From Pseudomonadota bacterium (lineage in GTDB: Bacteria; Myxococcota_A; UBA796; JAFGLY01), in assembly GCA_043814015.1 (NCBI GenBank), contig JBDRKM010000443.1:8926-72925 (forward strand): DNA of 64,000 bases, written 5' to 3'. Position 1 is the first letter of the stretch, and each line of letters starts with the position of its first letter. This document shows, in pieces, positions 15,161 through 31,874 of the stretch. The position numbers and the translations under genes were made by a program. Below the pieces are notes generated by a model. That model ran no database searches. It had not been told where the DNA came from and saw only the letters and a program-made list of their open reading frames with translations.

Positions 15161-15201
15161 GGGAGGCGGCTCCGGAGGGGGGGGCGGGGTCTATCAAGAA
15201 A

Positions 15202-16464: not shown

Positions 16465-18366
16465 ATGAGCCAGAATCCCCAGCAAGCCGCGCCCGTGGGC
16501 GTCACGCCCAAGGTCGTCACGCTGCGCGAACACATCGTCGAGATCGTCAGCGACTCCGGCCAGGGCGCCCAGAAGGCCGGCCAGTCCTTCAGCGCCATCA
16601 GCGCCAAGATGGGCAACGGCGTCTGGACGGTCGAGATCATCCCGGCCGAGATCAAGCCGCCCTCCCGCTCCTCGGCCGGCGCCTCGGGCATCCGCATCCG
16701 CATCGGCGATCACAACGTCACCAACATGGGCGACGAGGCCGACATGGTGGTGGCCCTGAACGAGCAGGTGCTCTACGGCCGCATCGAGCAGGGCGCCTAC
16801 CGGCGCGGCACCATCCTGCTGCTCGAGTCCAAGTGGGCGACGGATGCCAACCCCGCCATCTGCCAGGCCTACGCCGAGGCCGTCGATCGCTTCCGGGAGA
16901 TGGGGCTCGATGTCCGCGAGCTGGCCATCGAGGCCGCCTGCGTCGAGATCACCCCCACCCCCCAGCTCGGCATGAACATGTTCGTGCTGGGGATGATCTG
17001 CGAGATCTACCGGCGCGACTTCGAGATCGCGCGGGAGCAGATCCGCTTCGCCTTCCGCAAGAAGGCCACCAAGGTCGTCGAGATGAACCTGGAGCTGCTC
17101 GACGCGGGGCGCCTCTTCGCCCAGAGGGCCATCCCCGAGCGCTTCCAGATCGGGCGTTGGGACAACGACAAGCCCCTCATCGTCATGAACGGCAACGAGG
17201 CCGTGGGCCTGGGCGTGATGGCGGCCGGCATCGAGATGGTGGCCATGTACCCCATCACCCCCGCCACCTCCGCCTCCCACTACCTCGCCGAGGTCTTCCA
17301 CAAGGTGGGCGGCTGCGTCCACCAGGCGGAGGACGAGATCGCGGCCATCGGCTACGCCATCGGCGCCTCCTACGCGGGCAAGACCGCCTGCACCATCACC
17401 TCCGGCCCGGGCCTGGCCCTCAAGACCGAGTTCATCGGGCTGGCGGTCATGGCCGAGATCCCGCTGGTCATCGTGGTGGTCCAGCGCGGCGGGCCCTCCA
17501 CCGGCCTGCCCACCAAGGTGGAGCAGGGCGATCTGATGGCGGCCCTGCACGCCTCGCCGGGTGACGCCCCCAAGATCGTCATCGCCCCGGCCACCATCGA
17601 GGAATCCTGCCACTTCGTGGTCACCGCCCGCAAGCTGGCCGAGGCCTTCCGCGGCCCGGTCATGGTGCTGACGGACGCCAACCTCGCCACCGGCGTGCAG
17701 CCCTTCCCGCGGCCCAACGTCCAGGGCGAGTGGCTCTCCTCTCCCATCGATCAGTCCCCCTGGAAGGAGGGCGTGCTGCCCTACGACTGGGATCCGGACA
17801 CCGGCCTCTCTCCGCGCCCGATCCCCGGTCAAGCGGGTGGTGAGTACGTGCTCACCGGCCTGGCCCACACCAACCGCTCCTGGGTCGCCTATGATCCTGC
17901 CTCCAACCAGTACGGGGCCGAGATGCGCTCCCGCAAGCTGGCGGCGCTGCAGCGCACCCTGCGGCCGCCGAGGGTCTTCGGGGACGAGCAGGGCGAGCTG
18001 CTGATCGTCGGCTGGGGCTCCACGCTCGGCTCCATCGAGGAGGCCGTCGAGCGCGCCCGCGCCGATGGCTTCAGCGTCAGCGCCCTGCACCTGCGCTTCC
18101 TCTCGCCGCTGGAGCCCGGGCTCAAGGAGATCTTCTCGCGATTCGAGCGGGTCGTCACGGTGGAGATCAACTTCTCCGACTCCGCGACCGTGCCGCGCCC
18201 CACCGGTGAGCCGCGTCGGATGGGCCAGCTCGCCACCCTGCTGCGGACCCACACCCTGCTCGACATCGACTGCTACTCCAATGTCTACGGCCAGCCGCTC
18301 AGGCCCGGCCAGGTCTACGAAGAGATCCAGCGGCGGCTCGGCGCCGCCGGGAAGGAGGCTCGGTAA
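16465..18366 (+). CDS. korA: 2-oxoglutarate/2-oxoacid:ferredoxin oxidoreductase subunit alpha (gamma-alpha fusion)
   Basis: 633 aa. N-terminal gamma-like domain (SGQGAQKAGQ), then the alpha/pyrimidine-binding domain (MNGNEAVGLGVMAAG..YPITPAT). Confidence 0.9.
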   Translation: MSQNPQQAAPVGVTPKVVTLREHIVEIVSDSGQGAQKAGQSFSAISAKMGNGVWTVEIIPAEIKPPSRSSAGASGIRIRIGDHNVTNMGDEADMVVALNEQVLYGRIEQGAYRRGTILLLESKWATDANPAICQAYAEAVDRFREMGLDVRELAIEAACVEITPTPQLGMNMFVLGMICEIYRRDFEIAREQIRFAFRKKATKVVEMNLELLDAGRLFAQRAIPERFQIGRWDNDKPLIVMNGNEAVGLGVMAAGIEMVAMYPITPATSASHYLAEVFHKVGGCVHQAEDEIAAIGYAIGASYAGKTACTITSGPGLALKTEFIGLAVMAEIPLVIVVVQRGGPSTGLPTKVEQGDLMAALHASPGDAPKIVIAPATIEESCHFVVTARKLAEAFRGPVMVLTDANLATGVQPFPRPNVQGEWLSSPIDQSPWKEGVLPYDWDPDTGLSPRPIPGQAGGEYVLTGLAHTNRSWVAYDPASNQYGAEMRSRKLAALQRTLRPPRVFGDEQGELLIVGWGSTLGSIEEAVERARADGFSVSALHLRFLSPLEPGLKEIFSRFERVVTVEINFSDSATVPRPTGEPRRMGQLATLLRTHTLLDIDCYSNVYGQPLRPGQVYEEIQRRLGAAGKEAR

Positions 18367-18368
18367 TC

Positions 18369-19322
18369 ATGTTCGGACTCAAGACCGACTGGTCCCTGGA
18401 CGTCCCCTCCCGCTACTTCATCCTGGAGGACTACCTCGGCAACGAGGCGCGCTGGTGCCCGGGCTGCGGCGATCACGCCGTGCTCACCGCGGTGCAGCGC
18501 ATCTGCCGCGACGAGCAGCTGCCCCCCGAGCAGACGGTGGTGGTCTCCGGCATCGGCTGCTCCAGCCGCTTCCCCCACTACATGGCCACCTACGGCTTCC
18601 ACGGCCTGCACGGTCGCGCCCTGCCCGTGGCCGGCGGGGTCAAGTCGCGCCGCCCCGACCTCAAGGTCATCGTGGCCACCGGCGATGGCGACTGCTGCTC
18701 CATCGGCGCCGGCCATTGGATCCACGCCATCCGCTACAACCAGGACATGGTCGTCATGATGTTCGACAACAACATCTACGGCCTGACCAAGGCGCAGACC
18801 TCGCCCACCTCCCGTCAGGGCCAGAAGACCAACACCCACCCCCGTGGTTCCTGGTTGCCGCCCCTCAACCCCACCGCGGCCACCCTGGGCATGACGAACG
18901 TGTCCTTCATGGCTCAGACGGTGGACTGGATGCCCGGCCACCTGCACGCGGTGCTTCAGGCTGCCTACCGGCATCGGGGGCTCTCCTTCGTGCGCATCGC
19001 CCAGCGCTGCCCGCAGTACACCGGCAAGGCGTTCGAGGAGTTCGTCAACGACCCCAGCAGGATCCTCGTCCTCGAGCACGAGAAGGGCATCCCGCTGGAT
19101 CCGGACCTCCAGAAGTTCTACAAGAACCGCATGGTCCACGATCCGTCCGACATCGTGGAGGCCACGGCCATCTCGCACCGCGAGGACGTGCTCCCCATCG
19201 GCCTGTTCTTCTGGGATCCGTCCCGCCCCTGCTACGACGACTTCACCCAGCAGGGCATGGACATGTCCCCCGAGGACAAGCTGCGCGCCCTCAACGCGGA
19301 GATGGACCGCTTCGCGGTATAG
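18369..19322 (+). CDS. korB: 2-oxoglutarate/2-oxoacid:ferredoxin oxidoreductase subunit beta (TPP-binding)
   Basis: WCPGCGDH cluster motif and TPP motif GDGDCCSIGAGH...NNIYGLTKAQ. Starts 2 nt after the korA stop. Confidence 0.9.
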   Translation: MFGLKTDWSLDVPSRYFILEDYLGNEARWCPGCGDHAVLTAVQRICRDEQLPPEQTVVVSGIGCSSRFPHYMATYGFHGLHGRALPVAGGVKSRRPDLKVIVATGDGDCCSIGAGHWIHAIRYNQDMVVMMFDNNIYGLTKAQTSPTSRQGQKTNTHPRGSWLPPLNPTAATLGMTNVSFMAQTVDWMPGHLHAVLQAAYRHRGLSFVRIAQRCPQYTGKAFEEFVNDPSRILVLEHEKGIPLDPDLQKFYKNRMVHDPSDIVEATAISHREDVLPIGLFFWDPSRPCYDDFTQQGMDMSPEDKLRALNAEMDRFAV

Positions 19323-19364
19323 CGGTCCCTCCTCGAAAAGCCCCCTGTTTCCGGGGATGATGCC

Positions 19365-21953
19365 ATGAACAAGAGCCAGGACCTCCAGGTGCAGACGCCC
19401 GCGCAACCCGCGGTGGACGACCCCGAGCTGGATCAGGAGCGCGCGCTGCCGGCCGACGAAGCCGGGGCCGCCGGGACCGAGCCGGAGGCCATCCCCACGC
19501 GGCCCGACGTGGCCCTGCCGACCCTCCCCGCGCCCGGCGAGGAGCCCGCCCCCCGAGCACAGGGCGATCTCATGCGGGCGCTCAGGCGCTTCCATGTGGT
19601 CGGGGCCGAGGATGGCCTGGATCTCGCCGAGCACGATTTCCTGCCCGCCCTGATGTTCCTGTTCCGCGATCCGGGGCGGGTGCGCACCAAGTATCCGCTG
19701 TACCTGTTCCCCCCGCACAGCGCGGACCCGGGCAACCTGTTCGAGGGGCTCAAGGTCATCCTCGATCGGCTCCTCGCCGAGGTGGCCCCGGGCGCAGAGC
19801 AGGCGCGGGCCCTCAAGGACAACCTGGCGCGCCTGGAGATCGAGGTGCGCAAGGCCATGGCCGACGAGTCCCGGCCCGTGCCGGCGCGGCCCGTGTTCGA
19901 GGCGGCGGCCAGGGCGCTGTTGGCCGGGCTGCCCATGGAGAAGCCGGGCCTGGCCCAGCTCGAGGCCGAGCTTGGCGCGCTGGTGCAGGCCGTGGACCCG
20001 CAGGCCACCCTGCTCGGCCTGACCGAGGCCGCCCCGGTCTATTTGCTGCTGCAGGCGGCCCGTAGCCGCGTGCCCCGCCGCCACCGCACCTTCCGCGAGC
20101 GCATCGAGGTGTTGTGCCGCAAGCTGCAGGATCTGCTGCGGGTCGAGTACCACAAGAGCGCCGCCGCCCGCAGCGCCGAAGCCCTCGGTGGCGCCCTGGG
20201 CGGCGTGGCCGGCTCCTTCATGGACCCGAGCGTCCTGGGCAAGGTCATGGGCGCCCCGCGCGGCTCCGAAGTCATGCGTCCCCGCCGGCGCGAGCGCATC
20301 GCCGAGGTGCTGGAGGTGCTCTCCGCCTACCTCGCCGGCGATCCCATGCCGGTCCTCACCTTCACCCATCCCCCGGATCAGGATCTCTCCTGGCTGGCCG
20401 GTGCGCCGGGCGTGCGGCTCGTCCCCGCCGAGGATCCCGCCCTGGCGGCCACCGAGGCCTTCGACGAGGCCGCCGCCATGGCCCGGCTGGTCTGGGCCGC
20501 GCGGGTGGCCGAGCTCGAGGTCGAGGACGAGTACGAGCCGGTCTGCCATAGCCCCATCCTCTCCCACCTCACCTGGCAGGACTTCGGCCCCGAGGAGCTG
20601 CGCCTGCTGCCCCCCGTGGTGGCCATGGTCTCGGCCCGCACCCTGCCCGACCGCGGCATGACCTCCCTGTCGAGGCTGCTGCTCTCCGGCCGCCCGGTGC
20701 AGGTCATGGCCAACGTCCAGTCCGCCGGCACCCCCGGCGGCACCCCGGGCCGGGGCGCCTTCTCCGGCTTCCGCCTCGAGCTCGGCTACCTGGGCATCAG
20801 CCATCGCGAGGCGGTGGTGGAGCAGTCCTCCGCGGCCCGCCCCGGGCACCTGATGGAGAGCTTCCGCCGCGGGCTCGACGCCACCCGCCCCTGCCTGCAC
20901 GTCATCGCCTCGGGCCTCGCCTTCCAGGGCAAGCTGCCCCGCCTGGGCACCTGGCTGCACGGCGGCGCCGCCATCGAGAGCCGCGCGCACCCCTTCTTCC
21001 GCTACAATCCGCTCAAGGGCGAGGGCTGGGCCCGGCGCTTCAACTTCGAGGCCAACCCCCAGCCAGGTCGTGACTGGCCCGTCTACGAGCTGCCCTGTCG
21101 CGCCGCCGATGGCTCGAACGATTCCCTCACCCTGGCCTTCACCTTCGCGGACTACGCCCTGCTGGAGCCGGTCTACCACCACCACTTCCACCCCGTCCCC
21201 CAGGGTTGTCCCGAGGAGGATCTCGTGGCGGTGGACGCCTGGGTCCGGCTCAAGGGCGACGAGGTGCTGCGCAAGGTGCCTTTCGTCTGGGCGGTGGATT
21301 CGCGGCAGCGCCTGCAACGGCTGGCCATCACCCGCCGGCTGGCCCTGGCCTGCCGCGACCGCCTGAGCTTCTGGCACACGCTGCAGGAGATGGCGGGTAT
21401 CCACGACGAGTACGCGCAGCGCGCCGCCGCCGCCGCCCGGGCCACGGCCGAGGCCGAGGCCGAGGCGCGCCTGGCCGCCCGCGAGGCCGAGCTCGAGGCC
21501 GAGATCGCGCGCGTACGGGCCGAGGAGGCCGGCGAGGCCCTGAGCCGCCTGGCCGGGGCCCTGCTGAGCACCGACCTGGTGGCATCCCCGAGCAGCATCC
21601 CGGCGCGCGCCCCGCGCGCGGCCGCGCCGGCCGCCGTCGCCACCCCCGCGGCGGACACCGGCGTCTCCGCCGAGGCCGCCGCTCCCGTCGAGGAGGAGGA
21701 GTCCTTCGACGAGCCCTACATCGACACGCCGCTGTGCACCTCCTGCAACGAGTGCGTGGCCGCCAACAACCTGCTGTTCGTCTACAACGCCAACAAGCAG
21801 GCCTACATCGGCGATCCCAGGGCCGGCACCTTCGCCCAGCTGGTGGGCTCGGCCGAGAAGTGCCCCGGGCGCTGCATCCATCCCGGCAAGCCGCTCAACC
21901 CGAACGAGCCCGGCCTCCCGGATCTCATCGCCCGTGCGGCCCCGTTCAACTAG
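19365..21953 (+). CDS. Uncharacterised fusion: unknown N-domain, PFOR domain-VI-like (degenerate) region, coiled coil, C-terminal single-cluster ferredoxin
   Basis: 862 aa. The mid region (VVAMVSARTL..RPVQVMANVQ..HPFFRYNPLKGEGW..FNFEANPQP) parallels the C-terminal half of the PFOR TPP domain and the protein at 26429-27394. Ala/Glu-rich coiled coil. Tail CTSCNEC...CPGRCIHPG. Confidence 0.7.
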   Translation: MNKSQDLQVQTPAQPAVDDPELDQERALPADEAGAAGTEPEAIPTRPDVALPTLPAPGEEPAPRAQGDLMRALRRFHVVGAEDGLDLAEHDFLPALMFLFRDPGRVRTKYPLYLFPPHSADPGNLFEGLKVILDRLLAEVAPGAEQARALKDNLARLEIEVRKAMADESRPVPARPVFEAAARALLAGLPMEKPGLAQLEAELGALVQAVDPQATLLGLTEAAPVYLLLQAARSRVPRRHRTFRERIEVLCRKLQDLLRVEYHKSAAARSAEALGGALGGVAGSFMDPSVLGKVMGAPRGSEVMRPRRRERIAEVLEVLSAYLAGDPMPVLTFTHPPDQDLSWLAGAPGVRLVPAEDPALAATEAFDEAAAMARLVWAARVAELEVEDEYEPVCHSPILSHLTWQDFGPEELRLLPPVVAMVSARTLPDRGMTSLSRLLLSGRPVQVMANVQSAGTPGGTPGRGAFSGFRLELGYLGISHREAVVEQSSAARPGHLMESFRRGLDATRPCLHVIASGLAFQGKLPRLGTWLHGGAAIESRAHPFFRYNPLKGEGWARRFNFEANPQPGRDWPVYELPCRAADGSNDSLTLAFTFADYALLEPVYHHHFHPVPQGCPEEDLVAVDAWVRLKGDEVLRKVPFVWAVDSRQRLQRLAITRRLALACRDRLSFWHTLQEMAGIHDEYAQRAAAAARATAEAEAEARLAAREAELEAEIARVRAEEAGEALSRLAGALLSTDLVASPSSIPARAPRAAAPAAVATPAADTGVSAEAAAPVEEEESFDEPYIDTPLCTSCNECVAANNLLFVYNANKQAYIGDPRAGTFAQLVGSAEKCPGRCIHPGKPLNPNEPGLPDLIARAAPFN

Positions 21954-21971
21954 CCCGCGGAGAGAGTCGTC

Positions 21972-22833
21972 ATGCTGACCCTGCTCACGGCGGCGGCGAT
22001 CATGGCCGGGCTCGGGCTGGCCCTGGCCACCGTGCTGGCCGTGGCCTACCGCTTCCTGCGGGTCCCCGAGGATCCGCGGGTCGAGCAGGTGGAGGGCATG
22101 CTGCCGGGTTCCAACTGCGGCGCCTGCGGCCAGCCCGGCTGTCACGCCTTCGCCGAGGCCGTGGTCAGCGGTCGCGTGGCCCCTTCGGGCTGCTCCGTGT
22201 CCAGCGCCCAGGGCGTGGCCGCCATCGCCGAGTACCTGGGGGTCGATGCTGGCGCCCGAGTCCAGCGCGTGGCCCGGCTGCACTGCGCCGGGGGCGCGGC
22301 CCACGCCGGTCCGGTGGCCACCTACCAGGGCCAGTCCTCCTGCCAGGCCGCGTCCCTCGTAGGCGGGGGGGGCAAGGCCTGCGCATGGGGCTGCCTGAGC
22401 CTGGGCGACTGCGCCCGCGCCTGCACCTTCGACGCGATCCAGATGGGGCCCGACGCCCTGCCCGTGGTGGACCCGGAGCGCTGCACCGCCTGTGGCGCCT
22501 GCGTCGATGCATGCCCGCGGGGCCTGTTCGAGATCATGCCGCTGGATCAGCCCCTCGTGGTCCAGTGCTCCATCCCGCTCTCGGGCGATGCCGCGCGCGC
22601 CCTGTGCCGTGTGGCCTGCGACGCCTGCGGTCGCTGCGCCGCCGACGCCCTGCCCGGGGTCATCACCATGAAGAACAACCTCCCCGTGGTCGCCGCGGAC
22701 AGCGCCGCCGCCGCCACGCTGGAGGCCACGCTCCGTTGCCCCCACCGGCGCCATCCGGTGGGTCGAAGGGGCCCAGTTCGCCCTGGAGGAACCCGGGGCC
22801 GTCTCACGGAGGCCGCATGCCAGGACTGGTTGA
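21972..22833 (+). CDS. rnfB: Rnf electron-transport complex subunit B, interrupted by a +1 frameshift in a C5 run (22739-22743)
   Basis: N-terminal TM helix, CGACGQPGC FeS domain and several CxxCxxCxxxCP motifs. After RC the frame breaks; deleting one C restores CPTGAIRWVEG... ending at TGA 22831-22833. Confidence 0.85.
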
Positions 22834-25800
22834 AACCGGGCTGCGCCTGCTGCGCTCGCTCGTGGGGGATGCCGTCGGCACCCCCGCTCCGCTCCCCGGG
22901 CTCCCGACCGCGCTGCGCGGTTCGGCGGCCGTGGCCATCACCGAGGCCTGCGTGGCCGAAGCCGCCGGCCTGGGCGGGGGCGCACCCGCAGACCTGCTCG
23001 CCAACGCCTGGGAGGCCGAGCGCCGCCGGGAGGGCGTGAACCTCTTCGGGGGTGCGCTCACCGACGTGGTCGCCCCCACCTCGCGGGGCACCCTGGCCAG
23101 CGCCGTGGGCATGGCCCTGGCCGGCTCTCGGGCCACAGCCTTCCTCTCGGGGCCCAACCTGGCCGGCCAGCTCGATCTGCTGGCCGCCGCGGCCGGGCGG
23201 CACCAGCCGCTGGTGATCCACGGCGTGGCCCGCGCGCTCAACGGGCATGCCGGGGCGCGCGGCAGCGGGCACGAGGCCTGGCACGCCATCTCGGACGCGG
23301 GGCTGATCCAGCTGTTCGCGCGCAACGTGCAGGAGGCGGTGGACTTCGCCCTCGTCGGGAGACGTGTCGCCGAGACTTTCCTCCGGCCCGTGCTGGTCTA
23401 CATGGACGACGAGCGCACCGCCGCGGTCACCCAGGACGTCCTCCTCCCGGGGGCCGAGCTGGTGCGGCGCTACCTCGGCGCCCCTGGTGATCGCATCGAC
23501 TGCCCCACCCCGGCTCAGCGCATGCTCTTCGGTGAGCAGCGCCGCCGGGTGCCCCGCTGGCACGATCTGGAGCGCCCCGTGCTGCACGGCGCCATCCAGG
23601 GCCGCGGGGTCTGGAGCCTGGGCGCGGCCGGCTCGCGCCCCTTCACGTCCCAGGCGCGCCTGCCTGTGATCGAGGCCGCCTTCGCCGATTTCGCCGAGCT
23701 GACCGGGCGCCGCTACGGCCTGCTGCGCACCCACCGGGTGGAGGACGCCGAGGTGGTGCTGGTCTGCCAGGGCTCCAGCGGCGAGGCCGCCGAGTGCGTG
23801 GTGGACCACCTGCGCACCCAGAACAAGCAGAAGGTCGGCTGCATCTCTCTGCTCGGGCTGCGCCCCTTCCCCGGTGCGGCCCTGGTGAGCGCCCTGCAGG
23901 GCCGGCCCAGGGTGGCCGTGCTGGAGCGCGCCGACACCCTGCTGGCCGAGGATCCGCCCCTGCTGCGCGAGCTGCGCGCGGCCTTCGCCCGCGCCGTGGA
24001 GAACCACGGCGGCGCGGTGCACGCGGGCTACCCGGCGCTGGCCGCCGAGCGCGTGCCGCGGCTCCACGCCGCGATCTACGGCCTGGGTGGCTTCCCGCTC
24101 AGGGCCGGCGACCTGGTGGCCCTGGTGGAAGAGGTGCGCCGCGGGGGCCGGTCGTTGGTCTACCTCGGCATCGACTTTCACCGCAAGGACACCCGCTACC
24201 CCAAGCGCAAGGTGCTGCTGGACGCCCTCGCCCGCGAGTGGCCGGCGGAGCTGGCCCCCGGCCTCACCGGGTACCGCGCCCAGGACGTGCGCCCCGCGGG
24301 CGCCGTCACCCTGACCGTGCACCGCGTCGGTGGGGTCCCCGGCGGGGCCCTGGCGGCCGACATGGGCCGCATGCTGCACGTGGCCCTGGGCGGCTTCGTG
24401 CGCGGCCGGGCCGGCGAGAACTGGGAGCGCTGGCAGGCGCCCTGCATCGATCGGGTGGTCCACGCCCCCGTCCCGGTGGATCCTGGCGCGTCGGGTCCCG
24501 TGGACGTGGCGCTGGTCCTGGCGCTGTCCCCCCGTTCGGCGCGGGATCCCCTGGCGGAGCTGCGCAGCGGCGGCATCGCGCTGGTGGCCGACGCAGGCAA
24601 GGAGGGAGTGCCCCTGCTGCCCCAGGACACCTGGCTGCAGCTCGAGGCCCGCCATGTCCGCGTGCTGCCCGTCCCCTGCCCGGAGGGGGCCAACCACCCC
24701 GACTTCCGCGAGCGCGTGCTGGGCCTGGTCCTGCGCGCGCTGGGTGAGCTGGGGCGGAAGCTGCCCAGCCCCAAGAAGCTGGTGGCGGCTCGCGGCGCCC
24801 TGCTGGACGGCCTCGACCCACAGGAGATCACCCGGCGCCTGGCCATCTTCTCCGCCGCGTTGGAGCAGGGGGGCGCGCCGCGATCGGCACCAGATGCCCT
24901 GCCCATCCCCGCCATGCCGCCCAGCGTGCCCATGGCGGTGCGCCACTTCCACCGCGCCGACGGTACCTACGACAGCCTGCCGCGTTTCTGGGACCAGGTG
25001 GGCATCCTGTTCCGGGACGGCCACGTGGAGGAGCTCGTCCCCGATCCCTACCTCGCCACCAGCGTGGTCCCGCCGCTCACCGCCACCTTCAACGATTTTA
25101 CGCCGCTTCGGCGCTTCTTTCCCGCCTGGGAGCCCGCCCTCTGTACGGGCTGCGGCCGCTGCTGGACCGGCTGCCCGGACTCCGCCATCGGGCCCCTGGC
25201 CCTGCCCATCCCCACCCTGGTGGAGGGCGCCATGGCCCAGGCCGCCGCGCGGGGTGGCGCCATGGATCCGCTGCGCCCGCTGCTGTCCAAGGTCACCCAC
25301 CGCCTCGGCAAGCTGCTGCGCGAGAGCAAGGAGCAGCCCGCGGCCTTCGGGATCGTGCTGCGGGAGGCCGGTGCCCGCGTGCTGGAGAAGGCGAGCTTGC
25401 CAGCCGATCGCGCTCAGCCCGTCGCGGCCGCCCTGGAGGCCGCCGCCGCCGTGGTGGACGACCTCCCCATCGCCGGCACCCTGCCGTTCTTCGTCGACCC
25501 GGAGCAGCGCCAGGCCGGCACCGGCGAGATCCTGAGCCTCTCCGTGAACCCGGACGCCTGCAAGGGCTGCGGCATCTGCGCGCTCGCCTGTCCCGAGGGC
25601 GCCATGGGGATGGAGCCCCAGAGTACCGAGCGCGTGGCCTGGGCGCGCCGCGACTGGCAGCGCTGGGAGCAGCTCCCCGACAGCCCCGGCGAGACCATCG
25701 CCCGGGTGAGTGCGCACCCTGGGGTCGGCCCACTGGCGGCCATGCTCTTGTCTCGCACCTGTCTGCTGGGCCTCTCGGGCGGGGACTCCGCCGAGGCTGG

Positions 25801-26419
25801 CTCCGGCGAGAAGGTGGCAGTACGCCTGCTGCTGGCCGCCGCCGAGTGCCAGCTCCAGCCCGAGCTGCAGCGCCACATCGATCAGGTGGAGGGCTTGAGG
25901 ATCCGGCTGACGGAAGCCATCGGCGAGCGCCTGGCCAAGGCCCTGCCCACCGGCGATCCCGCGGGCATCGCGCTGGGGCTCAAGGGGCTGCGCCAGCCCG
26001 AGATCGACCTCTCCGCCCTGCTGGCCCGGGTCGAGGGCCAGGGCGAGCACGGGCGGGTCGATGTCGCCCAGCTCCGGCGCCTGTCGGACCTCGCCGGGCG
26101 CCTGCAGGAGCTGCGTTGGCGCCTGGCCGAGGGTCCCGACGGCCTGGGCCGGGCCCGCTTCTCCGTGACCATCGAGCCCGGGCACATCGCGTCCTGGGCC
26201 GGGGCCTTCCCCGACAACCCCTTCCACGTCCCCGTGGTCGTGGCCAGCGCCGGCGAGGGTCTGCACCTGGGCCGCGGCCTGCTGGAGGGCCAGCTCCGCG
26301 CCGTGCTGGAGGATCTACGCCTGGTGCGCGAGGCGCGCGTCGCCCTGGAGCACCCCGGCGAGTACGCCCGCGAGCTGCAGTCCCTGGCCCGCCTGGGGTG
26401 GCACGGCCTGACCCGCTAG
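22817..26419 (+). CDS. Pyruvate:ferredoxin oxidoreductase (PFOR/NifJ) homologue, domains I-V plus start of VI, catalytic motifs apparently lost
   Basis: In-frame ATG 22817 (MPGLVETG) inside the long ORF 21206..26419. Domain I/II/III-like blocks. Intact ferredoxin motifs CTGCGRCWTGCP and CKGCGICALACP (~25140-25600). Ends at TAG 26417-26419. Confidence 0.8.
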   Translation: MPGLVETGLRLLRSLVGDAVGTPAPLPGLPTALRGSAAVAITEACVAEAAGLGGGAPADLLANAWEAERRREGVNLFGGALTDVVAPTSRGTLASAVGMALAGSRATAFLSGPNLAGQLDLLAAAAGRHQPLVIHGVARALNGHAGARGSGHEAWHAISDAGLIQLFARNVQEAVDFALVGRRVAETFLRPVLVYMDDERTAAVTQDVLLPGAELVRRYLGAPGDRIDCPTPAQRMLFGEQRRRVPRWHDLERPVLHGAIQGRGVWSLGAAGSRPFTSQARLPVIEAAFADFAELTGRRYGLLRTHRVEDAEVVLVCQGSSGEAAECVVDHLRTQNKQKVGCISLLGLRPFPGAALVSALQGRPRVAVLERADTLLAEDPPLLRELRAAFARAVENHGGAVHAGYPALAAERVPRLHAAIYGLGGFPLRAGDLVALVEEVRRGGRSLVYLGIDFHRKDTRYPKRKVLLDALAREWPAELAPGLTGYRAQDVRPAGAVTLTVHRVGGVPGGALAADMGRMLHVALGGFVRGRAGENWERWQAPCIDRVVHAPVPVDPGASGPVDVALVLALSPRSARDPLAELRSGGIALVADAGKEGVPLLPQDTWLQLEARHVRVLPVPCPEGANHPDFRERVLGLVLRALGELGRKLPSPKKLVAARGALLDGLDPQEITRRLAIFSAALEQGGAPRSAPDALPIPAMPPSVPMAVRHFHRADGTYDSLPRFWDQVGILFRDGHVEELVPDPYLATSVVPPLTATFNDFTPLRRFFPAWEPALCTGCGRCWTGCPDSAIGPLALPIPTLVEGAMAQAAARGGAMDPLRPLLSKVTHRLGKLLRESKEQPAAFGIVLREAGARVLEKASLPADRAQPVAAALEAAAAVVDDLPIAGTLPFFVDPEQRQAGTGEILSLSVNPDACKGCGICALACPEGAMGMEPQSTERVAWARRDWQRWEQLPDSPGETIARVSAHPGVGPLAAMLLSRTCLLGLSGGDSAEAGSGEKVAVRLLLAAAECQLQPELQRHIDQVEGLRIRLTEAIGERLAKALPTGDPAGIALGLKGLRQPEIDLSALLARVEGQGEHGRVDVAQLRRLSDLAGRLQELRWRLAEGPDGLGRARFSVTIEPGHIASWAGAFPDNPFHVPVVVASAGEGLHLGRGLLEGQLRAVLEDLRLVREARVALEHPGEYARELQSLARLGWHGLTR

Positions 26420-26428
26420 GAGCAGCGC

Positions 26429-27394
26429 GTGGTGCCGCCGGTCCTCGTCCTGGGGAACGAGGCGGCCCTCACCGGCCGCAACCTCTCCACGCTGGCCACC
26501 GTGCTCGACCTCGACATGCCCGTGAAGATCGTGGTCCTGGCGGACTGCGACCTCGGGCTGACCGCCGGGAGCGGCCCGGCCGAGCCCGACGAGCTGGGCA
26601 GCGGCTGGACCGGCAGCCTGGGCGAGGTAGGCCTCTTGGCCCTGGGTCAGCGCCGCGCCTACGTCACCCAGTGCTCCCTCTCCGAGCCCGCCCAGCTCTT
26701 CCAGGGGCTCACCGAGGCCTTCGCCCACCCGGGTCCGGCCCTGATCCGCGTCCACGCGCCCAGCCCGAGCCGCCACGGCTTCCCGGTGCGTGAGGGCCTG
26801 GAGCAGACCCGGCGGGCCGTCCTGTCGCGCACCTTCCCCCTGTTCCGCTACGACCCCACCCGCGAGGGCATCTTCGGCGCCTGCCTCTTCCTCGACGGCA
26901 ACCCCGAGCCCACGGGCGACTGGGCGCGCGACGCCGAGGGCGTGGTGCGCACCGCGGGCGACTGGGCCGCCACCGAAGGCCGCTTCGCCTCCGAGCTGAG
27001 CCCCGTGGGTCCTGGCACCCCCGAGCCCACCCCGCTGCCCGAGTGGATCGCGCTGCCCCTGCACACCCGCCACGGGCGCACGCCCTTCGTCCCGGATCCG
27101 GTGGTGGTGGGGCGGCGGTTGGCCGTCTCCCCGCGCCTGGCCGCGGTGGCCGAGGAGCGCCTGCGCACCTGGCGCACCCTGCAGGAGCTGGCCGGCGTGG
27201 TCACCCCCTTCACCGCCCGGGTGAAGGAACTGGCAGAGCGCGAGCTGGCCGGTCGGCATGCCGCCGAGCTGGCCGCCCTGGAGGCGCGTCACGCCGCGGC
27301 GCTGGCCGCGCTGCGCGGCGAGGTCGAGCAGGACATGGCCCAGCGCGTGCGGGAGAACCTCCTCGAGCTGGCCGGGTACGGGCGGGGGGAGTAG
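26429..27394 (+). CDS. PFOR domain-VI (TPP-binding) C-terminal homologue with degenerate GDG motif and coiled-coil tail
   Basis: Same frame as the preceding gene, 9 nt after its TAG. AGGAG lies 6 nt before GTG 26429. VLVLGNEAAL..VKIVVLADCD takes the place of GGDGWAYDIG..VLVLDTE. FPLFRYDPTREG block. Confidence 0.7.
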   Translation: MVPPVLVLGNEAALTGRNLSTLATVLDLDMPVKIVVLADCDLGLTAGSGPAEPDELGSGWTGSLGEVGLLALGQRRAYVTQCSLSEPAQLFQGLTEAFAHPGPALIRVHAPSPSRHGFPVREGLEQTRRAVLSRTFPLFRYDPTREGIFGACLFLDGNPEPTGDWARDAEGVVRTAGDWAATEGRFASELSPVGPGTPEPTPLPEWIALPLHTRHGRTPFVPDPVVVGRRLAVSPRLAAVAEERLRTWRTLQELAGVVTPFTARVKELAERELAGRHAAELAALEARHAAALAALRGEVEQDMAQRVRENLLELAGYGRGE

Positions 27395-27400
27395 GGCGTC

Positions 27401-28756
27401 ATGGCTACTTCCCTGGCCAGCTTCCGGCACGGGGTGCACCCCACGGAGCACAAGGAGCCCACCTCGGGGCTCCCGATCCAGCGCCTGGGTTTCGTGGAGC
27501 GCTACCTGCTGCCCCTGTCGCAGCACCTGGGCGCCCCGAGCAAGCCCATCGTGGTGGTCGGCCAGGAGGTGGCCCGCGGCCAGCGCATCGCCGAGCCCGG
27601 CGGGTTCGTCTCCACCAGCCTGCACAGCCCGGTCAGGGGGCGCGTGGTGGCCATCGAGCCACGCCGCCTGCCCACCGGCGCCATCGGCCCCGCTATCGAG
27701 ATCGCCGCCGACAGCTTCGACCCCCAGCAGCCCCCGCCGCCGCCGCCGGGTCCTTTCGAGGAGCCCGACGTCGATGAGCTCGTGGCCGGGGTGCGCGACG
27801 CCGGCATCGTCGGCCTGGGTGGCGCGGCCTTCCCCACCCACGTCAAGTACAAGCTCCCGGACGGCCGGCGGGCCCACACCCTGGTGATCAACGGCGCCGA
27901 GTGCGAGCCCTGGCTCACCTGCGACCACCGCCTCATGCTGGAGCGCAGCCGCGCCGTGGCCGAGGGCATCAAGCTGGTGGCCGCGGCGCTGGAGGTCGGC
28001 CAGGCCCTGGTGGGGATCGAAGCCAACAAGCTGGACGCGGTGCGCGCCCTGCAGGCCGCGCTGCGCGCCATGCCCGGCGGTCCCCCGGTACAGGTGCGCC
28101 CTGTGAGGGTCAAGTACCCCCAGGGCGGCGAGAAGATGCTCATCGAGGCCCTGACTGGCGCCCAGGTGCCCGGCGGCAAGCTGCCGCTGCACATCGGCGT
28201 GGTGGTCAACAACGTGGGCACCATGGCGGCCTTGGCCGACTGGTTCCTGCGCGGCCAGCCCCTGATCGAGCGGGTGGTCACGGTCTCGGGGCCGGGGATC
28301 GCGCGGCCGGCCAACCTGCTGGTGCCCCTGGGTACCCCGGTGCGGGCTGTCCTGGAGGCCTGCGGCGGCCTGCCGGAGGATGCGCGCATGGTGATCATGG
28401 GCGGCCCCATGATGGGCCAGCCCCTGGCCAGCGTGGATGTGCCTGTGGTCAAGGGCACTTCGGGCCTGCTGGTGTTTCGCGAGGGCGATCTGTCCAGCCC
28501 CGAGGAGCTGGCCTGCATCCGCTGCGGCCGCTGCCTGGAGGCCTGCGCCTGCTTCCTCAACCCCTCCACGCTGGGGCGCCTGGCCCGCAAGGAGCGCTGG
28601 GAGGACATGCGCGCCCTGAACCTCCTGGACTGCATGGAGTGCGGCGCCTGCTCCTGGGCCTGCCCCTCCCGCATCCCCCTGGTGCAGCAGTTCCGGGTGG
28701 CCAAAGCCCAGCTCCGGCGCATCGACGCCCTGAAGAAGCAGCGAGGTGGGGCATGA
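27401..28756 (+). CDS. rnfC: Rnf complex subunit C (NADH-binding, FMN, 2x[4Fe-4S])
   Basis: GGAAFPTHVKY, INGAECEPWLTCD, and two CxxCxxCxxxCP motifs (CIRCGRCLEACA, CMECGACSWACP). Confidence 0.95.
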   Translation: MATSLASFRHGVHPTEHKEPTSGLPIQRLGFVERYLLPLSQHLGAPSKPIVVVGQEVARGQRIAEPGGFVSTSLHSPVRGRVVAIEPRRLPTGAIGPAIEIAADSFDPQQPPPPPPGPFEEPDVDELVAGVRDAGIVGLGGAAFPTHVKYKLPDGRRAHTLVINGAECEPWLTCDHRLMLERSRAVAEGIKLVAAALEVGQALVGIEANKLDAVRALQAALRAMPGGPPVQVRPVRVKYPQGGEKMLIEALTGAQVPGGKLPLHIGVVVNNVGTMAALADWFLRGQPLIERVVTVSGPGIARPANLLVPLGTPVRAVLEACGGLPEDARMVIMGGPMMGQPLASVDVPVVKGTSGLLVFREGDLSSPEELACIRCGRCLEACACFLNPSTLGRLARKERWEDMRALNLLDCMECGACSWACPSRIPLVQQFRVAKAQLRRIDALKKQRGGA

Positions 28757-29778
28757 ACCGCCACGACCAGGGGCTGTGGCTGCGCACCTCACCCCATGAT
28801 CGCGCCGCCACGGACACCCCGCGCATCATGCGCGATGTGCTGTTGGCGCTGACGCCCGTTTCCCTCGCCGCGCTGCTGTACTTCGGCGTCGCCGCCGTGT
28901 TGGTGGTGGGCGGCGCGGTGGCGGGCTGCGTGGCCACCGAGGCGGCCTTCGCCCCCCGCGGGCGGCGCACCGCCTCCCTGCGAGATGGCTCCGCCCTGCT
29001 CACCGGCTTGTTGCTGGGCCTCACCCTGCCCCCGAGCTTCCCTGTCTGGATGGCGTTTCTGGGAGGGGTGGTCGCCATCGGCCTGGGCAAGGTGGTCTGG
29101 GGTGGGCTGGGCCACAACCTCTTCAACCCGGCCCTCGTGGGGCGCGCCTTCCTGCAGGCCGCCTTCCCCACCGCCATCACCACCTGGTCGCCCCAGCGCG
29201 CGCAGGATCTGGCCGTCTACGCCAGCAACCTGGCCATGCCCTTCATGAAGGCTCCGGTCGATGCGATCAGCACCGCCACCCCGCTGGGCCTGATGAAGTT
29301 CCAGGGCCAGGGCACCGACCTCTGGAGCCTGCTGGTGGGCGACTGTCCGGGCTCTCTCGGGGAGACCAGCGCCGTGCTGCTGCTCGTCGGTGGGGTCTAC
29401 CTCTGGCGCCGACGCGCCCTCGACTGGCGCATCCCGGCCGCCATCCTGGGCACGGTCTTCGTCTTCTCCGGCCTCGTCTGGCTGGTGGCGGCCAAAGCTC
29501 CGCCCCCCTGGTTCATGCTGGGCTCCGGCGGCCTGATGCTCGGCGCCCTCTTCATGGCCACGGATCCGGTCACCTCGCCCATGGCGCCGCTGGGCGCCTG
29601 GATCTACGGCGCGGGCATCGGCGTGCTGGTGGTGCTCATCCGCCTGTGGGGCGGGCTGCCCGAGGGCGTCATGTACGCCATCCTGCTGATGAACGCGGTC
29701 ACCCCGCTCATCAACCGCGGGATTCAGCCCACCCCCTTCGGCCGGGGTCGCAAGGCCCCGCGGGAGGAGAGCCCATGA
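28753..29778 (+). CDS. rnfD: Rnf complex subunit D (NqrB-like membrane subunit)
   Basis: ATGA overlap with rnfC. Polytopic. DAISTATPLG flavinylation-type motif. Confidence 0.9.
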   Translation: MNRHDQGLWLRTSPHDRAATDTPRIMRDVLLALTPVSLAALLYFGVAAVLVVGGAVAGCVATEAAFAPRGRRTASLRDGSALLTGLLLGLTLPPSFPVWMAFLGGVVAIGLGKVVWGGLGHNLFNPALVGRAFLQAAFPTAITTWSPQRAQDLAVYASNLAMPFMKAPVDAISTATPLGLMKFQGQGTDLWSLLVGDCPGSLGETSAVLLLVGGVYLWRRRALDWRIPAAILGTVFVFSGLVWLVAAKAPPPWFMLGSGGLMLGALFMATDPVTSPMAPLGAWIYGAGIGVLVVLIRLWGGLPEGVMYAILLMNAVTPLINRGIQPTPFGRGRKAPREESP

Positions 29779-30449
29779 GCGCCGCCCCCGAAGCCGAGCC
29801 CTCCTCCTTCCGGCTGGTGGCCACCCTCACCATCGCCGGCCTGGTCTCGGGCCTGCTGCTGGTCGGGGCCTACCAGATCACCAAGCCCATCATCGAGCGC
29901 AATGAGGCCGAGGCCCTGCAGGCTGCCGTGTTCCAGGTGCTGCCCGGCACCGAGGAGCTGCAGCCCCTGGTCCTGCGCGAGGGCCACCTGGATCCGGCCA
30001 CCCCGGCCGACAAGGACGCCCCCACCATCTACGCGGGCCGTCGTCGCGGGGGCGCGCTCGTGGGCTACGCCATCCCAGCCCAGGGCCCCGGCTTCCAGGA
30101 CACCATCAAGCTGATCTTCGGCTACGACCCGGCCCGGGCCGTCATCGTGGGCATGAAGGTGCTGGACTCCCGCGAGACCCCGGGGCTGGGCGACAAGATC
30201 AAGAAGGACAAGGCCTTCCTGGACAACTTCACCGCCCTGGCGGTGGATCCGGAGATCGTGCCCGTGGGAACGGGCAAGAAGGCCGCGCCCAACGAGCTGG
30301 ACTGCATCACCGGCGCCACCATCTCCTCCAAGGCCATCGCGAAGATCGTCAACGGCGGCATGGAGACGTGGCGCCCGGTGCTCGTGCCCGAGGGCCTTGG
30401 GGCGACCGAGCCCGAGCCACCGCCCGTGCCCCAGGAGGCCACGCCATGA
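29775..30449 (+). CDS. rnfG: Rnf complex subunit G (NqrC-like, FMN-binding)
   Basis: ATGA overlap with rnfD. Single N-terminal TM helix. ETPGLGDK and ITGATISS motifs. Confidence 0.9.
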   Translation: MSAAPEAEPSSFRLVATLTIAGLVSGLLLVGAYQITKPIIERNEAEALQAAVFQVLPGTEELQPLVLREGHLDPATPADKDAPTIYAGRRRGGALVGYAIPAQGPGFQDTIKLIFGYDPARAVIVGMKVLDSRETPGLGDKIKKDKAFLDNFTALAVDPEIVPVGTGKKAAPNELDCITGATISSKAIAKIVNGGMETWRPVLVPEGLGATEPEPPPVPQEATP

Positions 30450-31099
30450 GCGCCCTGGCTCCCGAAGCTCCGCGCACCGCGTCCCAGGCCTACGCAGAGT
30501 TCGTCAAGGGGATCTGGAAGGAGAACCCGGTCTTCGTGCAGGTGCTGGGCATGTGCCCCGTCCTCGCCGTCACCAACTCCGCCATCAACGCCCTGGCCAT
30601 GGGCGCCGCCACCCTGGTGGTGCTGGTGGGCTCCTCCTTCTTCGTCTCCCTCTTGCGGCACCACATCCCCAAGCAGGTGCGCATCTCCACCTACATCATC
30701 ATCATCGCCACCTTCGTCACGGTCACGGACTACGCCCTGAAAGCCATCTCCCCCGCGGTCCACGCCGAGCTGGGCGCCTTCATCGCGTTGATCGTGGTCA
30801 ACTGCATCATCCTCGGGCGCCAGGAGGCCTTCGCCGCCAAGAACACCGTCAAGCTGGCGGTGATGGACGCGCTGGGCATGTCGGCGGGCTTCACCATCGC
30901 GCTCCTGGCGCTGGGCGCTGTGCGCGAGATCCTCGGCAGCGGCTCGCTCTTCGGCGTCTCGCTGTTCGGCCCCCACTACGAGCCCTGGGTCATCATGATC
31001 CTGCCGCCCGGCGGCTTCATCATGCTGGGGCTGATCCTGCTGTTCTTCGCCTGGCTCAAGCAGCGCCGCCAGCGCGCCACGCATGGGGAGGCGGCCTGA
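30446..31099 (+). CDS. rnfE: Rnf complex subunit E (NqrD-like)
   Basis: ATGA overlap with rnfG. NPVFVQVLGMCP signature. Confidence 0.9.
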   Translation: MSALAPEAPRTASQAYAEFVKGIWKENPVFVQVLGMCPVLAVTNSAINALAMGAATLVVLVGSSFFVSLLRHHIPKQVRISTYIIIIATFVTVTDYALKAISPAVHAELGAFIALIVVNCIILGRQEAFAAKNTVKLAVMDALGMSAGFTIALLALGAVREILGSGSLFGVSLFGPHYEPWVIMILPPGGFIMLGLILLFFAWLKQRRQRATHGEAA

Positions 31100-31677
31100 T
31101 GGGTGCGTTCATCGGCATCTTCATGGGCTCGCTGGTGATCAACAACTTCACCCTGAGCTACTTCCTCGGCATCTGCCCCTTCCTGGGGGTCTCGGGCCGC
31201 GTGGTCACCGCCTTCCGCCTGGGGCTGGCCAACATCTTCGTGATGCTCATCACGGCGTTCTGCACCTGGGGCCTGAACACCTTCATCCTGCCGCACGCCC
31301 CCTACCTGCAGATCATCAGCTACATCCTCGTCATCGCCTCCACCGTGCAGTTCGTGGAGATGGTCATCAAGAAGCTCTCCCCGGAGCTGTTCCGGGCGCT
31401 GGGCATCTTCCTGCCCCTCATCACCACCAACTGCGCCATCCTGGGCCTGGCCCTCTTCATGACCAACAAGGGCTTCGGCCTGGCCGAGGGCATGGTCTAC
31501 GCGCTCGGCGCGGGCGGCGGCGTCACCCTGGCCCTGGTGCTGATGGCCGGTCTTCGGGAGGAGGCCGAGCTGTCGGACATCCCCGCGCTCATGCGCGGCA
31601 CCGCCATGAGCCTCATCATCGCCGGCCTGCTGTCGCTGGCCTTCATGGGCTTCGCGGGCCTGTTCGCGGCGGGCTGA
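31099..31677 (+). CDS. rnfA: Rnf complex subunit A (NqrE-like)
   Basis: 1-nt TGATG overlap with rnfE. NNFTLSYFLGICPFLGVS and ITTNCAILG signatures. Confidence 0.9.
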   Translation: MGAFIGIFMGSLVINNFTLSYFLGICPFLGVSGRVVTAFRLGLANIFVMLITAFCTWGLNTFILPHAPYLQIISYILVIASTVQFVEMVIKKLSPELFRALGIFLPLITTNCAILGLALFMTNKGFGLAEGMVYALGAGGGVTLALVLMAGLREEAELSDIPALMRGTAMSLIIAGLLSLAFMGFAGLFAAG

Positions 31678-31874
31678 TGCTCACCCATCTGCTCGCCGTG
31701 CTCGGCCTCGGGCTCGCCTGTGGCCTGTGGGTGATCCTCCAGCGCTGGGTGGCGAAGCGCGATCCGGGCCAGCCCGGGGTGGAGGGCAGCGTGGGGTGTT
31801 CGCATGGGGAGTGCGAGCAACCCGACGGCGCCTGCGCGGGGTGCAGCCTGAAGGGGGAGTGCTCGGGGCGGTGA
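31677..31874 (+). CDS. Small single-TM protein with Cys-rich tail (NqrM / FeoB-associated Cys-rich-like)
   Basis: 65 aa. 1-nt overlap with the rnfA stop. TM helix LLAVLGLGLACGLWVIL, then GCSHGECEQPDGACAGCSLKGEC. Its 3' two-thirds is duplicated at 37312-37483. Confidence 0.6.
   Translation: MLTHLLAVLGLGLACGLWVILQRWVAKRDPGQPGVEGSVGCSHGECEQPDGACAGCSLKGECSGR
31712..31815. repeat. Left copy of a perfect 104-bp direct repeat
   Basis: Identical base-for-base to 37312-37415 (offset exactly 5600 bp). Similarity continues imperfectly for about 40 more nt (GCGCCTGCGCGGGGTGCAG shared). Confidence 0.95.

Follow-up and report, generated by a model that had tools for sequence, protein, structure and literature searches.

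Among the closest described counterparts of the system presented here are two Rnf complexes encoded by operons of the rnfBCDGEA/rnfCDGEAB type, that of Acetobacterium woodii (PDB 9eri) and that of Clostridium tetanomorphum (7zc6). This system is a block of genes in a 64,000-nt stretch of contig JBDRKM010000443.1 (assembly GCA_043814015.1), hereafter the window. The block encodes six Rnf subunits, a two-subunit 2-oxoacid:ferredoxin oxidoreductase (KorAB), a protein of about 1525 residues that is homologous to pyruvate:ferredoxin oxidoreductase (PFOR) and is called PFOR-like below, and an 862-residue paralogue of the latter (p862). Like the two described complexes, it has all six subunits with canonical domains and flavinylation motifs, its RnfB is long and multi-cluster, and its genes are tightly coupled in translation. 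It differs from them in that a 4.6-kb PFOR-like gene lies between rnfB and rnfC, that korAB and p862 are added upstream, and that a gene for a 65-residue membrane protein (the mini gene) is added downstream. To our knowledge, no described rnf operon contains a PFOR-like gene, korAB, p862, or a gene for such a 65-residue protein. Rnf and alpha-beta-type 2-oxoglutarate:ferredoxin oxidoreductase (OGOR) are known families; judged from the sequence, what is new is that an Rnf operon has its own PFOR-derived subunits for electron input and includes an OGOR.

Two further systems are comparable in part. The Magnetococcus marinus OGOR (6n2n/6n2o) is likewise built of alpha and beta subunits, carries a single [4Fe-4S] cluster, and lacks a delta or ferredoxin domain, but it uses free ferredoxin, whereas korAB in the window is embedded in an rnf operon and adjoins the gene for a predicted tethered ferredoxin. 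In the Hdr-Flx/KorABCD clusters of tubeworm symbionts and Thioflavicoccus, OGOR genes are likewise interleaved with those of an electron-supplying complex, for which a direct shuttle to the carboxylase has been proposed (PMC6315080). However, those clusters encode a four-subunit KorABCD, their partner is the soluble bifurcating Hdr-Flx rather than the membrane-bound Rnf, they have no PFOR-like scaffold, and they are separate from the locus with dimeric korAB and 'PFOR-like' of Mitchell et al. 2024 (PMC11636981), which is the module described here. The latter authors mention 'PFOR-like' and korAB(3) in passing as co-regulated, with no role assigned, and Rubin-Blum et al. 2019 tabulate a two-subunit KorAB (PMC6315080). 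Full-text searches of the literature did not turn up any description of the module; papers on Endoriftia mention 'PFOR-like' and dimeric korAB in passing.

Layout and conservation of the block

The block extends from position 16465 to 31874 of the window, all on the + strand, in the order korA, korB, p862, rnfB, PFOR-like, rnfCDGEA, and mini gene (Table 1). Since the G+C content of the window is about 72%, raw lists of open reading frames (ORFs) are rich in spurious frames. The frames given here follow from translations and from the G+C content at third codon positions (GC3), which is 0.9–1.0 in the coding frame; the run of + strand genes is unbroken from end to end. Pfam and NCBIfam support the gene assignments throughout, the mini gene being the exception without a family. 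An earlier note on this DNA, made from the letters and their ORFs, had claimed a 15.4-kb co-directional module with the rnf order B-CDGEA and about 4.6 kb of PFOR homologue between rnfB and rnfC, and the GC3 map, the translations, and the Pfam and NCBIfam matches bear it out in these respects.

The genes are closely packed. The gaps are 2 nt between korA and korB, 42 nt between korB and p862 (the largest in the block), 18 nt between p862 and rnfB, and 6 nt between PFOR-like and rnfC. The stop/start overlaps noticed earlier are likewise seen: 4 nt at rnfC/rnfD, rnfD/rnfG, and rnfG/rnfE, and 1 nt at rnfE/rnfA and rnfA/mini gene. As sequenced, the block does hold the twelve ORFs that had been counted. 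However, the 1200-residue and 321-residue ORFs after rnfB lie in one frame, separated by a TAG codon, and their homologues are continuous proteins of about 1500–1550 residues; in an exhaustive search, the 321-residue piece matches the end of 1400–1570-residue proteins in nearly all full-length representatives. Therefore, the two ORFs represent one gene of about 1525 codons, and the ancestral count is eleven. The number of PFOR-derived proteins, put at three before, is corrected to two, the homologues of the split ORFs being single proteins of about 1530 residues.

Terminators between the parts of the block had been named as a sign that would speak against a single module. The + strand terminator scan finds no terminator-like hairpin in any intergenic gap; its two matches both lie inside the PFOR-like coding region, at a frequency expected by chance. 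A scan for sigma-70-like promoters gives no matches, a search with the sigma-54 consensus gives fewer matches than in shuffled sequences and none 5' of korA, and Rfam and tRNA scans of the window are empty. The gene 3' of the block is convergent with the mini gene, and in close relatives a divergent phosphoglycerate mutase gene lies 5' of korA, which opens the block in relatives as well. Therefore, the unit runs from korA through the mini gene. The block thus reads as one predicted operon for an Rnf-type ion-translocating NADH:ferredoxin oxidoreductase.

The arrangement is widely conserved, which the earlier note had made a touchstone of its proposal. Scanning GTDB with a single genome per species yielded 200 proteins related to PFOR-like, and tblastn and blastp were used to map the eleven window proteins onto 80 loci. 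The full order korA-korB-p862-rnfB-PFOR-like-rnfC-D-G-E-A is present in 41 of the 80 loci, often with the mini gene after it, and about 17 further, shorter contigs agree as far as they reach. Carriers of the full order span at least five phyla: Gammaproteobacteria, Myxococcota, Planctomycetota (Phycisphaerales), Acidobacteriota, and Candidatus Eisenbacteria. They include Chromatiales, Sedimenticolaceae, Woeseiaceae, Thiohalomonadaceae, and Candidatus Thiodiazotropha, as well as an additional metagenome-assembled genome (MAG) of Myxococcota. Relatives at about 70% protein identity have the whole block with the same junctions, encoding a 290-residue RnfB, a 1534-residue PFOR-like protein, and a 65-residue mini protein.

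Other loci contain parts of the block. In no locus was p862 found without korAB beside it, and 53 of the 54 korAB loci carry it; in locus L004, korAB is on the opposite strand and p862 is absent. Beggiatoaceae, Thiosymbion, and Thiorhodococcus minor DSM 11518 (L075) have rnfB and PFOR-like only, with no korAB or p862 nearby. On the basis of these synteny variants, including those weighed below, the block can be divided into three sub-modules, [korA-korB-p862], [rnfB-PFOR-like], and [rnfCDGEA-mini].

Three gammaproteobacterial loci (L020, L022, and L026) have about 2.7 kb of DNA between PFOR-like and rnfC, at about 14623–17290.

The proteins of the block

The PFOR-like protein retains the fold of PFOR. 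In its N-terminal 1200 residues, domains I, II, and III-like are followed by a ferredoxin domain, which has two CxxCxxCxxxCP motifs, and then by helical repeats; its C-terminal 321 residues comprise a degenerate domain VI and a coiled-coil tail. Pfam detects only POR_N, PFOR_II, and Fer4 in the 1200-residue part. A collinear phmmer alignment with 1b0p, 6cin, and 7plm covers domains I–II, the ferredoxin domain's two cluster motifs, and the final part of domain VI. When the AlphaFold2 model (mean predicted local distance difference test score, pLDDT, 76.6) is submitted to Foldseek, full-length PFORs rank on top (E 2e-35 for 6cip, 17% identity), with the domain order I-II-III-V-VI. Compared with the homodimeric PFOR/NifJ enzymes of D. 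africanus (1b0p) and M. thermoacetica (6cin), the protein has the collinear order I, II, III-like, V, VI, both [4Fe-4S] motifs of the ferredoxin domain, and Foldseek E-values of about 1e-35 over about 1150 columns. In contrast to them, at about 17% identity, it has lost catalytic signatures and gained a helical insert of about 100 residues between the two cluster motifs and a coiled-coil tail of about 180 residues, which bring it to about 1525 residues versus about 1170–1230.

The losses concern thiamine pyrophosphate (TPP) and the proximal cluster; family statistics for them come from alignments of 13 and 24 sequences. Glu64 of PFOR, which activates TPP, aligns to Ser89 of the PFOR-like protein, where the family consensus is Pro; the adjoining Arg90 is invariant. 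The GDG...N diphosphate motif is absent: the window reads GNE...ADCD, the family consensus has no conserved Asp, and TPP_enzyme_C scores 17 bits on the 321-residue part, below its cut-off of 21.9. The loss of GDG is argued from this direct reading and the sub-threshold Pfam match, because a comparison of the family profile with KorB across the region aligned the APSP/RCPQ segment alone. Neither of the two TPP signatures is therefore recognizable. In the proximal-cluster region, APC of PFOR has become APSP, in which the invariant Ser is at the position that aligns to the Cys of RCPQY in KorB, and GACxGCGE is replaced by AEAGSGEK, so that the four Cys of domain VI are missing. TIGR02176 reaches 96.8 bits, against a PFOR equivalog cut-off of 911.35. 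By contrast, the ligands of the two [4Fe-4S] clusters of ferredoxin domain V (C776, C779, C782, and C786; C915, C918, C921, and C925) are either invariant or conserved to at least 90%. Invariant polar residues in domain I include R90, H135, H152, H156, D176, E186, D197, and Q206, and the family is large (219 clusters at 50% identity, E up to 1e-30) and under clear purifying selection. Because the PFOR fold is kept while the TPP motif, the activating Glu, and the proximal-cluster Cys are lost, the protein appears to be a pseudo-PFOR able to carry two [4Fe-4S] clusters, that is, a PFOR homologue in structure and not in function, working in the manner of a ferredoxin or scaffold. Public annotations name the genes of the module 'pyruvate-ferredoxin/flavodoxin oxidoreductase', '4Fe-4S binding protein', or 'ferredoxin'; with such labels, metabolic reconstructions would be misled, for instance into assigning a pyruvate synthase activity.

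p862 resembles the C-terminal third of this protein. Residues 374–739 align to residues 1170–1518 of the PFOR-like protein P0003 (BLASTP; 28% identity over about 365 residues, E 8e-21). In the AlphaFold2 model of p862 (pLDDT 83), an N-terminal helical domain is followed by an alpha/beta domain and a helix of 50 residues; a disordered linker of about 45 residues (736–779) then leads to the C-terminal ferredoxin domain. In Foldseek, the alpha/beta domain matches PFOR domain VI and the beta subunits OOR/PorB (E 1e-8 to 1e-6). The ferredoxin tail, which resembles 1dax, would hold a single [4Fe-4S] cluster on the family-conserved Cys791, Cys794, Cys797, and Cys833. A W(R/H)TLQE(L/M)AG helix preceding the coiled coil is invariant and common to p862 and PFOR-like. 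Sequence and model alike point to an N-terminally truncated PFOR-like paralogue, in which a dead PFOR domain VI is joined to a ferredoxin by a flexible linker. In some lineages, a version of p862 of about 1300 residues occupies the same operon position and keeps the N-terminal PFOR domains (PFOR_II and Transketolase_C) as well as the ferredoxin tail, which suggests that the ancestral module had two full-length PFOR-like paralogues in tandem.

In Candidatus Eisenbacteria (L071, 1809–14479; P0163 and P0164), two PFOR-like copies flank rnfB, one on each side, and the p862 homologue has no C-terminal ferredoxin domain.

KorAB looks catalytically intact. KorA contains domains III, I, and II (Pfam POR, POR_N, and PFOR_II), scores 507.6 bits against TIGR03710 (cut-off 482.75), and has the M. 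marinus OGOR (6n2n_A) as its best solved relative (E 1.5e-82). KorB matches TPP_enzyme_C (E 1.6e-26) and PFO_beta_C and, with 244.8 bits, falls slightly below the TIGR02177 cut-off of 261.9; no NCBIfam equivalog cut-off is reached by KorAB. The KorB translation contains WCPGCGDH, GIGCSS, TGDGD...FDNNIYG, and RCPQY, that is, an intact GDG...NN TPP motif of the GDG-X(24-27)-N(N) form and four Cys for one [4Fe-4S] cluster, in a two-subunit 2-oxoacid:ferredoxin oxidoreductase architecture. Like other two-subunit enzymes of its type, KorAB has no ferredoxin (delta) domain.

The RnfBCDGEA set is complete and canonical in its domains and motifs. RnfB, which is of the long type, is anchored in the membrane at its N-terminus and has the Fe-S domain (PF04060, E 4.4e-14) and several [4Fe-4S] motifs, among them a dicluster ferredoxin-type domain (Fer4 families); in the PDB it matches RnfB of A. 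woodii (9eri_B, E 1.1e-57) and of C. tetanomorphum (7zc6_B, E 1.7e-51), and in the window its gene carries an insertion of 1 nt close to the 3' end. RnfC, the NADH/FMN-binding subunit with two [4Fe-4S] clusters (RnfC_N, Complex1_51K, SLBB, and Fer4), scores 519.8 bits against TIGR01945 (cut-off 245.95). The membrane subunits RnfD (NQR2_RnfD_RnfE, E 1.2e-107), RnfE (Rnf-Nqr, E 2.2e-64), and RnfA (Rnf-Nqr, E 1e-53) and the FMN-binding subunit RnfG (FMN_bind, E 3.8e-14) make up the six. Putative covalent-FMN attachment motifs of the S/T-G-A-T type are present in RnfG (CITGATISS) and RnfD (AISTATP), as the earlier note had read them. No apbE, the absence of which had also been pointed out, is found among about 42 window ORFs scanned (34.3–38.8, 40.3–42.0, and 58.5–60.6 kb lie outside the scan); this carries no weight, since apbE can lie anywhere in the genome.

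The mini protein is a single-pass membrane protein of 65 residues with a Cys-rich tail containing a CxC-type motif. In relatives, its gene follows rnfA and is called as a 65- or 55-residue gene; BLAST finds matches in about 30 loci, with the common pattern ML(T)HLLAILGLA..C..W..QRW...DPD....CGC. It belongs to no Pfam or NCBIfam family. The idea that it is a Cys-rich maturation factor, either NqrM-like or associated with FeoB, was dropped, as four orthologues gave no Pfam match at E-values up to 10.

A candidate electron path and its alternatives

The earlier note had suggested that Fe-S wire or docking proteins are built into the assembly. The idea gains support from both PFOR-derived proteins: PFOR-like is without the TPP and proximal-cluster signatures but keeps its two CxxCxxCxxxCP motifs, and p862, a domain VI paralogue, has at its end a single-cluster ferredoxin joined by a disordered linker. 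We lean, by a modest degree, towards a reversible Rnf/2-oxoglutarate oxidoreductase assembly wired by these proteins. The Fe-S proteins would connect the cluster of KorB to RnfB, so that the redox reaction between 2-oxoglutarate and succinyl-CoA would be coupled to NAD(H) and an ion gradient without a free ferredoxin pool. Since synteny groups korA, korB, and p862, p862 would be the tethered ferredoxin or adaptor of KorAB, while PFOR-like would be an electron-relaying extension of RnfB. The two would probably pair through their common C-terminal helix and coiled coil.

Such an assembly should be reversible. Downhill, 2-oxoglutarate oxidation would reduce NAD+ and export ions; uphill, NADH and the ion gradient would drive the conversion of succinyl-CoA and CO2 to 2-oxoglutarate. 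The uphill, 2-oxoglutarate-synthesizing direction is very slightly preferred, at least in autotrophic carriers, and the downhill, energy-conserving direction is plausible for heterotrophs, of which the source of the window is probably one. Gene neighbours fit a place in the succinyl-CoA/2-oxoglutarate segment of the tricarboxylic acid (TCA) cycle. In the Lamellibrachia barhami endosymbiont (L032), sucC, encoding the beta subunit of succinyl-CoA synthetase (14596–15831), lies directly 3' of PFOR-like, with no rnfCDGEA within 10 kb downstream. In a Thiohalomonadaceae MAG (L016, 282–3170), a gene for a fumarate reductase/TfrA-type flavoprotein (FAD_binding_2) is followed by a NuoF-like gene and then by korA. 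The NuoF-like gene, of 415 codons (Complex1_51K, SLBB, and NADH_4Fe-4S), lies directly 5' of korA in many gammaproteobacterial loci; the window has neither it nor the flavoprotein gene at that place. In the Riftia symbiont (Endoriftia), dimeric korAB and 'PFOR-like' decrease together with the nitrogen genes nirB and glnL under sulfide limitation (PMC11636981), which hints at energy-dependent 2-oxoglutarate synthesis for nitrogen assimilation.

A more specific form of the proposal is a membrane-bound supercomplex, in which a two-subunit 2-oxoglutarate synthase would be docked on RnfB by the two dead paralogues of PFOR. Electrons would then follow an insulated Fe-S path without free ferredoxin, NADH and the ion gradient would drive CO2 into 2-oxoglutarate, or the reverse reaction would conserve energy, even in oxygen-exposed bacteria. 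This form is tentative, and we give it somewhat less than an even chance.

Several observations weigh against the proposed assembly. The substrate of KorAB, probably 2-oxoglutarate, is assigned from similarity and neighbours, and sequence cannot settle the direction of the reaction. In Beggiatoaceae, the pair rnfB and PFOR-like is located away from any rnfCDGEA; tubeworm-symbiont loci have korAB-p862-rnfB-PFOR-like without rnfCDGEA downstream; and in an Acidobacteriota locus (L015, 8942–16113), p862 is followed directly by PFOR-like, with rnfB undetected across 26 kb. The substrate-binding Arg114 of PFOR is kept as Arg139 in at least 90% of PFOR-like members, so some ligand binding is conceivable. 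Finally, the window copy of the module carries a frameshift and a nonsense codon.

The loci in which the sub-modules stand apart, in Beggiatoaceae and in tubeworm symbionts, also suit an alternative in which the genes are co-regulated and their products form no fixed complex, the two large Fe-S proteins being soluble or peripheral and serving as diffusible, dedicated ferredoxin substitutes or as regulators. In keeping with this alternative, neither an RnfB–PFOR-like nor a KorB–p862 fusion occurs among the 120 homologues or 150 representatives listed, and the ferredoxin domain of p862 is similar to free single-cluster ferredoxins. However, a scaffold of 1525 residues would be costly for two clusters, RnfB is anchored in the membrane and its gene overlaps PFOR-like translationally, the p862 ferredoxin is tethered rather than free, and the gene order is rigid between phyla. 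We regard the absence of a fixed complex as unlikely, if still worth serious consideration.

The two lesions bear on a different question, whether the module is decaying and non-functional in this genome, both being real inactivating mutations; this would be compatible with the family-level mechanism. The first lesion is in rnfB. In a DNA alignment, the C-run at 22739–22743 is C5 in the window and C4 in four close relatives (L001, L006, L008, and L010), and the ORF as sequenced therefore overlaps the PFOR-like gene out of frame by 223 nt. With one C removed, RnfB ends ...RCPTGAIRWVEG... at TGA 22831–22833, giving a 17-nt overlap with the PFOR-like ATG at 22817. The 17-nt overlap given in the earlier note thus holds for the ancestral state and not for the DNA as sequenced. 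The last 35 nt or so of rnfB (22800–22833), including GGAGG and the PFOR-like ATG, are almost invariant DNA in the same four relatives, which differ at many synonymous sites elsewhere; this fits a translational coupling of the two genes.

The second lesion is the TAG within PFOR-like. Relatives have GAG or GAC at this site, and CTG (3/3 compared) at the window GTG three codons on. The sequence TAGGAGcagcgcGTG at 26417–26431 reads as a stop codon, a Shine-Dalgarno sequence (AGGAG), six bases, and GTG 26429, at the boundary before domain VI, and translation could re-initiate there. The split may represent a viable fission of the gene, a newly arisen nonsense mutation, or an error in the assembly. 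Recoding of the stop as selenocysteine is rejected, since the codon is TAG and not TGA and relatives carry GAG/GAC (Glu/Asp) codons, and recoding as pyrrolysine finds no support.

That the module is decaying is suggested by the restriction of both lesions to the window copy, since all four close relatives compared are without them, and by the free-standing 321-residue piece, an atypical state for a region that normally ends a full-length protein. On the other hand, GC3 is 0.9–0.97 through both lesioned genes and the other genes of the block are intact, which would place any decay in the very recent past. The frameshift falls 3' of the last cluster Cys of RnfB, all cluster Cys being kept; TAG-AGGAG-N6-GTG, with GTG for the CTG of relatives, resembles a stop, Shine-Dalgarno, and start at a domain boundary and fits a viable fission; and a homopolymer indel is also typical of sequencing error. 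Decay is accordingly rated improbable, and because the frameshift spares the cluster Cys and the TAG lies at a domain boundary with a Shine-Dalgarno sequence and GTG after it, the window module may work as a split version.

It is very improbable that PFOR-like is an active enzyme that uses new chemistry or a new cofactor to pass electrons from an unnamed substrate to RnfB: the many invariant polar residues of domain I, the retained arginine, and the large family under purifying selection would suit such an enzyme, but the TPP diphosphate motif, the activating Glu, and all four proximal-cluster ligands are missing family-wide, and neither Pfam nor NCBIfam detects another cofactor-binding family.

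The proposed wiring of KorAB to Rnf bears on an open problem of the reductive TCA cycle and of anaplerotic 2-oxoglutarate synthesis, namely how electrons at about -500 mV are delivered to 2-oxoacid:ferredoxin oxidoreductases in aerobic and microaerobic bacteria. A conserved OGOR-Rnf operon with Fe-S scaffolds is a concrete, testable answer. If correct, it would constitute a previously unrecognized route of low-potential electrons to OGOR, widespread among marine sulfur oxidizers, animal symbionts, and sediment heterotrophs, and would clearly exemplify the reuse of a large metabolic enzyme, PFOR, as a scaffold that transfers electrons without catalysis. Ecologically, the carriers are prominent, comprising tubeworm and lucinid symbionts, Sedimenticolaceae, Woeseiaceae, Chromatiales, giant sulfur bacteria, and marine Myxococcota and Planctomycetota.

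Feature coordinates and neighbouring genes

Table 1 Features of the block, of its surroundings in the window, and of related loci. Positions are those of the window unless a locus is named.
Feature	Position or locus	Strand	Description
korA	16465-18366	+	633 aa, alpha subunit, first gene of unit
korB	18369-19322	+	317 aa, beta subunit
p862	19365-21953	+	862 aa, putative N-terminally truncated PFOR-like paralogue
rnfB	21972-22833 after frame correction (ORF to 23039 as sequenced)	+	286 aa corrected
PFOR-like, N-terminal part	22817-26419	+	1200 aa, stops at in-frame TAG 26417-26419
PFOR-like, C-terminal part	26429-27394	+	321 aa, same frame as N-terminal part
rnfC	27401-28756	+	451 aa
rnfD	28753-29778	+	341 aa
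rnfG	29775-30449	+	224 aa
rnfE	30446-31099	+	217 aa
rnfA	31099-31677	+	192 aa, frame set by GC3
mini gene	31677-31874	+	65 aa, last gene of unit
ORF upstream of korA	15312-16106		264 aa
ORF downstream of mini gene	31889-34330	-	813 aa
ODP-GGDEF gene	44876-46690	-	ODP (oxygen-binding di-iron) domain fused to GGDEF diguanylate cyclase
Regulator genes	52910-56985	+	Histidine kinase, then two sigma-54 activators, one with FHA domain
Long p862 version	L086 8771-12721; also P0167-P0171		1300-1344 aa; L086 is a Myxococcota JABWCM01 MAG
NuoF-like gene 5' of korA	L016, L020, L022, L024, L026, L029-L031, L048, L052-L054, L061, L066, L068, L082		

Next to the block, the 264-residue ORF lies between the phosphoglycerate mutase gene and korA and has a weak match to the BPSS1780 family of membrane proteins; it is not found at the equivalent place in the close relatives L001 and L003. 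The 813-residue ORF, which converges on the mini gene and lies 14 nt from its stop, contains no Pfam domain and weakly matches the C-terminal tail of a myxosortase-dependent protein family. This match is among the few hints of a Myxococcota origin of the DNA, to which other genes of the window (FHA-sigma54 activators and DUF1573/Ig proteins) and the nearest outgroup also point tentatively; the labels of the closest MAGs ('uncultured Enterobacterales/proteobacterium') look unreliable. Farther downstream, the ODP-GGDEF protein and the histidine kinase with its sigma-54 activators may be redox- or oxygen-responsive regulators.

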